Assembly: GCA_030614005.1 (NCBI GenBank)
Contig: JAUWKS010000002.1
Location: 120,001-152,000 of the forward strand
DNA: 32,000 bases
Direction of reading: 5' to 3'
DNA from: Candidatus Heimdallarchaeota archaeon
GTDB taxonomy: Archaea > Asgardarchaeota > Heimdallarchaeia > JABLTI01
Positions 9,361 to 9,493 of this stretch are shown here, in pieces (position 1 is the first letter of the stretch; each line of letters starts with the position of its first letter). The position numbers were made by a program, and so were the translations under genes. The notes beneath the pieces were generated by a model that ran no database searches, had not been told where the DNA came from, and saw nothing but the letters and a program-made list of their open reading frames with translations.

Positions 9361-9415
9361 CTTAATTAGGATTATTTTAAGTAATGTTATTAGAAAAAAG
9401 TAAATAACTTATAGC

Positions 9416-9493
9416 TCTGCTATCGCAGATTCGCGGTCACTACAAGCCCACTTACAGTGGTCTTGCTTAACGTTCTAGCGCGAGATTCTATTA
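9416..9493. ncRNA. Conserved structured element A (ncRNA or DNA end structure); strand unknown
   Basis: GC-rich island in an AT-rich spacer. Hairpin TCTGC/GCAGA, TTCGC, CTAC, CCAC-TTACA-GTGG, closing TCGCG/CGCGA, TTCTATTA. Homologous to 24413-24490. Confidence 0.55.

Follow-up and report, generated by a model that had tools for sequence, protein, structure and literature searches.

Orphan structured non-coding RNA motifs, such as the HEARO/omega RNAs before their function was known, combine a compact, covarying fold with multiple copies per genome, residence in islands of mobile or defence genes, and a taxonomically narrow distribution. An element of about 90 nt with the same combination of features is described here from the genome of a Heimdallarchaeota archaeon, where two copies (A and B) are found in the window, i.e., the whole 32,000 nt stretch of DNA that was analysed. 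The Asgard aCas1 and ARAMP loci (Makarova et al. 2020, as cited in PMC10691335) and the aCas1-TnpB elements are the cassettes in which the element resides; for the latter, the available part of PMC10691335 describes loci with a hypervariable region downstream of tnpB. No mention of the element was found in the papers examined, including the available text of PMC10691335 on aCas1-TnpB loci.

Unlike the HEARO/omega RNAs, the element has no similarity to Rfam families, is not located at the 3' end of tnpB and carries no long, variable, guide-like segment. It resembles the attC sites of integrons in its position at a cassette boundary, in a structure that is better conserved than the sequence, in the inverted words at its ends and in cassette homology that stops at the edge of the site, and its length falls within the 57–141 nt range of attC. 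However, it folds as a three-way junction (stems P0, P1 and P2) and not as a single imperfect hairpin with extrahelical bases, its end words are not of the RYYYAAC/GTTRRRY kind, its copies are solitary and not arrayed, no IntI-type recombinase is present among the neighbours scanned, and it lies upstream of a cassette operon and not after a promoterless ORF. With REP/BIME and MITE-type repeats it shares a dispersed, intergenic distribution, a location at the 3' ends of genes, frequently where two genes converge, and the ability of both strands to fold, but its copies are far fewer, its fold is much more complex, its loops are conserved, its stems evolve by compensatory change, and no target duplications accompany it. 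The adjoining of a LAGLIDADG-fold protein gene and a candidate structured RNA also recalls the LAGLIDADG maturases and their intron RNAs, although here there is no intron, nothing is conserved upstream of the ORF, and half of the copies lack a LAGLIDADG gene. The architecture of the LAGLIDADG-HTH protein itself resembles that of WhiA (a LAGLIDADG scaffold plus HTH), from which it differs in that the catalytic Asp positions are apparently retained in both motifs.

Copy A follows a LAGLIDADG-HTH gene (7789–9360, + strand; 523 aa, Pfam LAGLIDADG_3 and HTH_3) and copy B follows a second one (22745–24373, + strand; 542 aa) with a product 34% identical to the first. The core of copy A (type II) extends over 9408–9494 (+ strand) and is matched by the covariance model R1 at 9408–9498 (56.2 bits, E = 1.9e-12 genome-wide), while the core of copy B (type I; 24404–24491, + strand) is matched at 24404–24495 (91.6 bits, E = 3.8e-23). 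The fold is Y-shaped, with an outer stem, P0, around the hairpin P1 and a long arm, P2-P3-P4. Along the arm, P2 is followed by a conserved internal loop (words of the GUCGCUAC / ACGCUCC type), a weak P3, and P4, which is capped by a UAC triloop; the junction strands, as read from the alignment, are 2–4, 1–3 and 3–4 nt long. In copy A, P0 is formed by 9408–9414/9488–9494, P1 (TCTGC/GCAGA) by 9416–9420/9425–9429, P2 by 9431–9435/9479–9483, an inner stem (AAGC/GCTT) by 9444–9447/9465–9468, and P4 by 9448–9452/9456–9460 with its triloop at 9453–9455. The corresponding stems of copy B are P0 at 24404–24410/24485–24491, P1 (CGCAC/GTGCG) at 24413–24417/24424–24428, P2 at 24430–24433/24477–24480, P3 at 24437–24441/24469–24473, and P4 at 24447–24452/24456–24461 (triloop 24453–24455). 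Upstream of both cores is the box AAGTAATGTT, at 9379–9388 in copy A (+ strand; its TAAT at 9382–9385, 26 nt ahead of the core) and at 24373–24382 in copy B (+ strand; TAAT at 24376–24379, 28 nt ahead), where it shares sequence with the stop codon of the upstream LAGLIDADG-HTH gene.

An earlier note on this DNA had listed a series of words common to the two copies, and all of them (AAGTAATGTT, hairpin 1, TTCGC, CTAC, a TTACA-capped stem, GCGA and TTCTATTA) are present in both, in the places that it gave. It is likewise correct that the stem sequences differ while pairing is kept (TCTGC/GCAGA against CGCAC/GTGCG in hairpin 1, CCAC/GTGG against ATCGC/GCGAT in the capped stem). The word TTACA is indeed there but is not, as had been thought, a loop; it consists of the UAC triloop and the closing U-A pair (pair 62/66), which changes to C-G in other copies. 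The pairing of the flanking AATAG-type and CTATT-type words with each other was missed, and these form P0, with words of the CTCAATAG/CTATTGAG type and variants. The earlier statement that LAGLIDADG copy 1 has no element behind it also holds.

The source genome (3.6 Mb in 126 contigs) encodes 13 paralogues of the LAGLIDADG_3 + HTH_3 protein, and reading 3' of their stop codons revealed the element again on contigs C63, C48, C86 and C8. An iterated nhmmer search gave 23 copies, five of them in the source genome without an adjoining LAGLIDADG gene. The covariance-model search that the earlier note had suggested, run with R1, found 11 copies in the source genome and 37 in 10 of the 82 genomes of the class, nearly all of them within a single genus, with E-values across the 37 genomic copies from 1e-11 to 1e-25. 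These ten genomes are the source genome, seven of the ten others of the same genus, the one genome of a sister genus, and one of 24 from a genus of another family; a sample of 150 further Asgard genomes from across the phylum gave no R1 match. Metagenome contigs provided ten further copies by the model, most of the matches there being chance 19-mers. Among virus contigs, a single 19-mer match lies inside a coding region without a model match and is attributed to chance, and a second pattern gave no matches. The family comprises four sequence types. Copies are solitary, the closest pair being 2.1 kb apart and inverted. On the metagenome contig L210, a type I copy (602–693, - strand) and a type IV copy (2830–2920, + strand) stand back to back at this distance, and they head separate cassettes, one with LAGLIDADG and the 1392-aa gene, the other with AbrB and a TnpB-like gene. 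Two GC-rich stretches with several hairpins are also found behind LAGLIDADG-HTH genes, at G000:C110:42700-42800 (- strand) and L032:5691-5789, and are partly type II-like (AAGCCCAC...GGTGGTCTT). They have E-values of 0.17–0.24 or no R1 match, are left out of the counts, and may represent a fifth, diverged type.

The fold was examined for covariation in 37 distinct sequences. Standard pairs occupy 83.1% of the cells, against 26.9–42.3% when the 3' partners are slid by 1–3 columns, and 26 of the 28 pairs show changes on both sides, as read from a model-fitted alignment that leans toward R1 and from copies that are related. None of the 500 shuffles reached any of the observed measures, which places the pattern well outside chance, and the outcome was similar on 24 sequences, so that the earlier description of a covarying structured element is borne out. 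Pairing is highest in P2 and P4 (93% of cells each) and in P1 (91%), each of these three stems having 4–6 double-changed pairs. P0 is paired in 70% of cells, partly an under-count because the types are one base out of register, and by eye its CAATAG/CTATTG changes to CAAAAG/CTTTTG and to CATTAG/TTAATG. P3, paired in 71% of cells, is weak except in type I. A pairing between the 3' half of P1 and the conserved ACGCUCC word was considered and dropped, as it fits type IV alone. With regard to strand, G-U pairs outnumber A-C mismatches by 41 to 29 on the R1 pairs and by 38 to 7 on the RNAalifold pairs, the latter count being biased because those pairs had been picked on the + strand. The consensus fold of the - strand is equal to that of the + strand in stability, or slightly greater, and the + strand is preferred only modestly.

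The statement in the earlier note that the element matches no RNA family was upheld, both Rfam and ARAGORN being blank. The Rfam search it had suggested gave no matches in the window at gathering thresholds, nothing overlapped the element at E ≤ 5 on six copy-bearing loci, and ARAGORN called no tRNA or tmRNA genes in the window. A tRNA-like reading was rejected, as there are three helices, no T arm, and linkers and core words that do not fit. The junction strands lack the CUGANGA / GAA / H core words of hammerhead ribozymes, for which there was also no Rfam match. A CRISPR repeat or crRNA was discarded since copies are single and there are no arrays or spacer-separated direct repeats. A TnpB omega RNA was also rejected, the element lying about 280 nt upstream of the TnpB-like genes (L142, L233, L210, L231) and not at the 3' end of tnpB; at other tnpB loci, a divergent tnpB and the element are on opposite sides of the LAGLIDADG gene. 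No long, variable, unpaired segment that might serve as a guide is present. Elsewhere in the window, at 1611–1638 (+ strand), there is a sequence resembling the 3' half of a tRNA, with a T arm (GGGTTCGAATCCC), an acceptor strand and a T-run. It was not called by ARAGORN, and could belong to a tRNA that is split or contains an intron, or else, next to the Cas5-HD gene, be what is left of an attachment site.

The sequences flanking the element are also patterned. In 31 of 44 copies a TAAT starts 25–30 nt ahead of the element, most often at −29 (14 copies), and between −36 and −24 the word occurs 38 times, as against six times in the mirrored downstream control. The box contains G and is weaker than the canonical TATA before the 1392-aa gene. 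Behind LAGLIDADG genes, where it coincides with the stop codon, its conservation could be due to that overlap. It is present in about 18 of the 22 copies without such a gene. Calibration of the promoter box on tRNA flanks (17 tRNAs called) gave no positional signal. Oligo-T runs are the terminator signal of archaea, in which termination needs only oligo-T. Each of the 13 type I copies is followed within about 6 nt of P0 by 4–9 consecutive T, as at 24492–24497 (+ strand) directly 3' of copy B; types II–IV are inconsistent with respect to this T-run. Type I copies also have an A-rich tract ahead of the element. Ahead of the 1392-aa gene, and 3' of the element, there is a TATA-like word, TTTATAAA, which in C63 lies no more than about 30 nt from the start codon. 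Since this gene has a TATA-like word of its own, the element is not its leader. In the window, a block of AATCAGAAAGGAATGTCATT plus the TATA-like TTTATAAA (24533–24575) is conserved in many loci, and includes a possible hairpin and T-run.

The neighbours of all copies were annotated by homology to the proteins of the window and by Pfam, and two main arrangements are seen. In the first (class L, 19 of the 37 genomic copies), a LAGLIDADG-HTH gene ends 15–48 nt before the element, and about 14 of the 19 copies stand ahead of a putative Cas1-like operon. Eleven have the arrangement of copy B, in which a gene for a 1392-aa protein without Pfam match (24694–28872, + strand) is followed by one for a DEAD/MZB helicase, often with a divergent tnpB. 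Three have the arrangement of copy A, with a 38–40-aa coiled-coil ORF and genes for a winged-helix protein, a 674-aa Cas1-like fusion (weak Cas1 match, E = 5e-4), a 241-aa protein and a Cas4-like nuclease. In the window, the 38-aa ORF (9531–9647, + strand) begins 37 nt past copy A and is conserved in the corresponding position behind the orthologous element of G072:C17; the operon, from the winged-helix to the PD-(D/E)XK (Cas4-like) protein, occupies 9954–14196 (+ strand). Upstream of the winged-helix gene there are three direct repeats of the type GGAWTTTTTTAC (about 9797–9902), and related TTTTTTGTGA repeats are found behind LAGLIDADG paralogues on C67, C78 and C122. These repeats may be operator sites of the operons for 674-aa Cas1-like proteins.

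In the second arrangement (class A, 11 of the 37 genomic copies and four metagenome copies), a 50–75-aa AbrB/SpoVT-like ORF lies on the opposite strand, with its stop 0–23 nt from the 3' end of the element. Eighteen of the 37 copies are without a LAGLIDADG gene, and no upstream remnant of one is present in class A, L153 being an exception at the end of a contig; upstream there is a gene for a RadA-like, HEAT-repeat or unknown protein, or one on the opposite strand. Divergent from the AbrB-like ORF there is a Cas7 and Cas5-HD pair (three loci of the source genome), a member of a 585–700-aa NERD-like family, or a TnpB-like gene (about 485 aa). The 585–700-aa proteins are an unannotated family with 26–27% pairwise identity and a weak NERD match at the C-terminus, represented downstream of class A copies at L138:2852-4723, L141:7417-9174 and L148:4683-6785 (- strand). 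The remaining seven copies occur in other contexts, two of them with a Schlafen/AlbA_2 protein gene upstream. Two small ORFs of the AbrB/SpoVT-like family found tail-to-tail in class A are also present in the window, below the cut-off of the ORF list, at 3700–3884 and 6262–6457 (both + strand), the first being divergent from a Cas7 gene (2829–3608, - strand) and overlapping the start of a 149-aa ORF. Behind LAGLIDADG copy 1, a 78 nt stretch (6073–6150) is an 88% identical copy of the 5' end of the Cas7/RAMP gene (3513–3590), and may be a relic of cassette duplication or rearrangement.

The element heads cassettes of the Cas1-like, Cas7/Cas5-HD, NERD-like and TnpB-like kinds at their upstream edge, next to the gene for a DNA-binding regulator. 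The orientation counts represent only a few independent events, since each of the two classes, L and A, belongs largely to a single lineage. The earlier note had taken it to be specific to LAGLIDADG-Cas1 junctions. This does not hold, given that only 19 of the 37 copies follow a LAGLIDADG-HTH gene, that 11 have a convergent AbrB-like gene, and that LAGLIDADG-Cas1 modules without the element exist (e.g., on contig C67). In the source genome it is absent from more than half of the LAGLIDADG-HTH genes and from three of the four Cas1 loci of the 674-aa type. A type II element in a B-type context (see below), together with the element-free modules, shows that it does not co-evolve with any one variant of LAGLIDADG or Cas1, to both of which its link is frequent but not defining.

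The edges of the element are best seen where cassettes can be aligned. Three paralogous Cas7/Cas5-HD cassettes of the source genome are 73–81% identical over about 2.46 kb, and the homology runs from base 2–3 of the element to about 45 nt past the stop of cas5-HD, with no promoter included. Conversely, copies from unrelated contexts have only 86–90 nt in common, at 87–93% identity, between flanks that cannot be aligned. The locus G076:C286 has a LAGLIDADG protein and flanks of the copy B kind (52% against 32% protein identity), while its element is of the copy A type (92% identity over 79 nt to A, unalignable to B). Taken together with the edge comparisons, this indicates that the element is better conserved than its neighbours and exchangeable independently of them. 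Copy B lies inside an 11 kb unit that is bounded by an 18 bp inverted repeat unrelated to P0. No partner site was found at the far end of cassettes, no direct repeats or target duplications were evident by eye in the flanks, and no empty site was found, although the divergence of the genomes weakens that search; nothing in the genus is collinear with the flank of the C9b cassette. The RadA-like gene ahead of a copy in G072 has a homologue with a longer tail in the source genome, but synteny is lacking on both sides and an insertion cannot be claimed. Metagenome contigs over 6001–26000 are too fragmented to reveal gain or loss, and their sole relevant feature is one loose end at 9387.

Tentatively, the element is read as a modular, ~90 nt gene for a putative small non-coding RNA, located on the + strand at cassette edges. 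It is the closed fold, the sharp P0 edges, the positioned A/T box and the T-run that, together, a small RNA gene fits best. The TAAT box would act as a TATA-like promoter, placing the start of transcription at the foot of P0, and in type I the T-run just past P0 would end the transcript, giving a compact RNA with both ends paired. Such an RNA might act in local control of the cassette. In class A it would run into the 3' end of the AbrB-like gene, with antisense pairing or transcriptional interference affecting a probable repressor, and in class L the element would close the LAGLIDADG-HTH transcription unit and separate it from the operon's own promoter. A protein partner bound to the RNA is likely. 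The main rival, unlikely though it appears, is a folded-DNA site for recombination, integration or homing, single-stranded or cruciform, that marks the cassette boundary and could be recognised by a Cas1-like integrase or a LAGLIDADG nuclease, loosely in the manner of attC or of a homing-endonuclease target. Such a site would account for the break in paralogous-cassette homology exactly at the outer edge of P0, for the swapping of element types independently of flanking genes, and for a structure that is kept while the sequence varies and the terminal inverted words are conserved. Folding energy gives no clear preference for either strand, the distance of the LAGLIDADG gene from the same edge is always 15–48 nt, and one metagenome contig, weak evidence on its own, shares sequence only from 9387 onward. 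The co-distribution with the LAGLIDADG-HTH and 674-aa Cas1-like families points the same way but is weak evidence of partnership, because the genomes are close kin. Against a folded-DNA site are the missing partner at the other cassette end, the lack of target duplications, arrays and an empty site, the poor fit of the three-way junction and P0 words to attC, the absence of a tyrosine recombinase in the loci read, and the location of copy B within an 11 kb unit bounded by unrelated 18 bp inverted repeats; it also leaves the positioned TAAT box and T-run unexplained.

Three other explanations were weighed against the small RNA gene. The element might do no more than shape transcript 3' ends, as a terminator, insulator or mRNA stabiliser in either orientation and without a separate RNA. 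A 90 nt three-way junction with conserved loops, and conservation above that of its neighbours, far exceeds what a terminator needs; T-runs are missing after most type II–IV copies, and the TAAT distance is fixed even where the upstream gene points away. These points make a pure 3'-end structure rather unlikely, despite its constant placement at gene 3' ends (15–48 nt after LAGLIDADG-HTH, or 0–23 nt from the AbrB-like stop on the other strand), the A-rich tract before and T-run after type I, and the about equal folding of both strands. The proposal of the earlier note, a dedicated RNA or single-stranded DNA cofactor or substrate of the Cas1-like or LAGLIDADG-HTH protein, has a precedent in the maturases of the LAGLIDADG family, which bind structured RNA, together with their intron RNAs. 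It agrees with the nearly identical phyletic ranges and with the 19 of 37 copies directly behind LAGLIDADG-HTH, some 14 of them before putative Cas1-like operons, and yet seems improbable when 18 of the 37 have neither an upstream LAGLIDADG gene nor a remnant, many have no Cas1-like gene nearby, and over half the LAGLIDADG-HTH genes, along with three of the four 674-aa-type Cas1 loci in the source genome, do without the element. Its type is, moreover, independent of LAGLIDADG clade, and a long, variable, unpaired segment that could be a guide is lacking. More improbable again is a selfish, MITE-like repeat spread by a transposase in trans, with the outer stem as its terminal inverted repeat. 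Multiple copies (11 in the source genome), a 7–8 bp inverted terminal word (P0) such as defines terminal inverted repeats, sharp edges and unrelated intergenic contexts in mobile or defence islands are all as expected of one, but flanking direct repeats are absent, copy number is low, changes are compensatory and not random decay, copies are kept at orthologous positions across species with an identity above that of their flanks, and placement and orientation are fixed relative to the regulator genes.

Whichever molecule is involved, the element links cassettes that have no genes in common (Cas1-like, Cas7/Cas5-HD, NERD-like and TnpB-like), and outlines a common cassette architecture of a regulator gene (LAGLIDADG-HTH or AbrB-like), the element and an effector operon. 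A broader proposal, and quite a doubtful one, is that the element is a folded nucleic-acid handle for moving or exchanging the array-less Cas-derived cassettes of Asgard archaea. It could be a structure-specific edge site that is recognised by a diverged Cas1 integrase or cut by a LAGLIDADG-HTH nuclease. If such a handle exists, it would represent an archaeal counterpart of integron attC recombination or of HO-type cassette switching, driven by Cas1 or by a meganuclease, and a DNA site for either of them would be relevant to the use of Cas1 integrases prior to CRISPR arrays. The narrow range, centred on one uncultured genus, limits immediate testing. In archaea that carry many array-less Cas1 and Cas7/Cas5 derivatives of unknown function and mobility the element offers an experimental handle, be it a regulator, a partner RNA or a recombination site, and it would be, for Asgard Cas-derived loci, the first family of structured non-coding elements to be defined.
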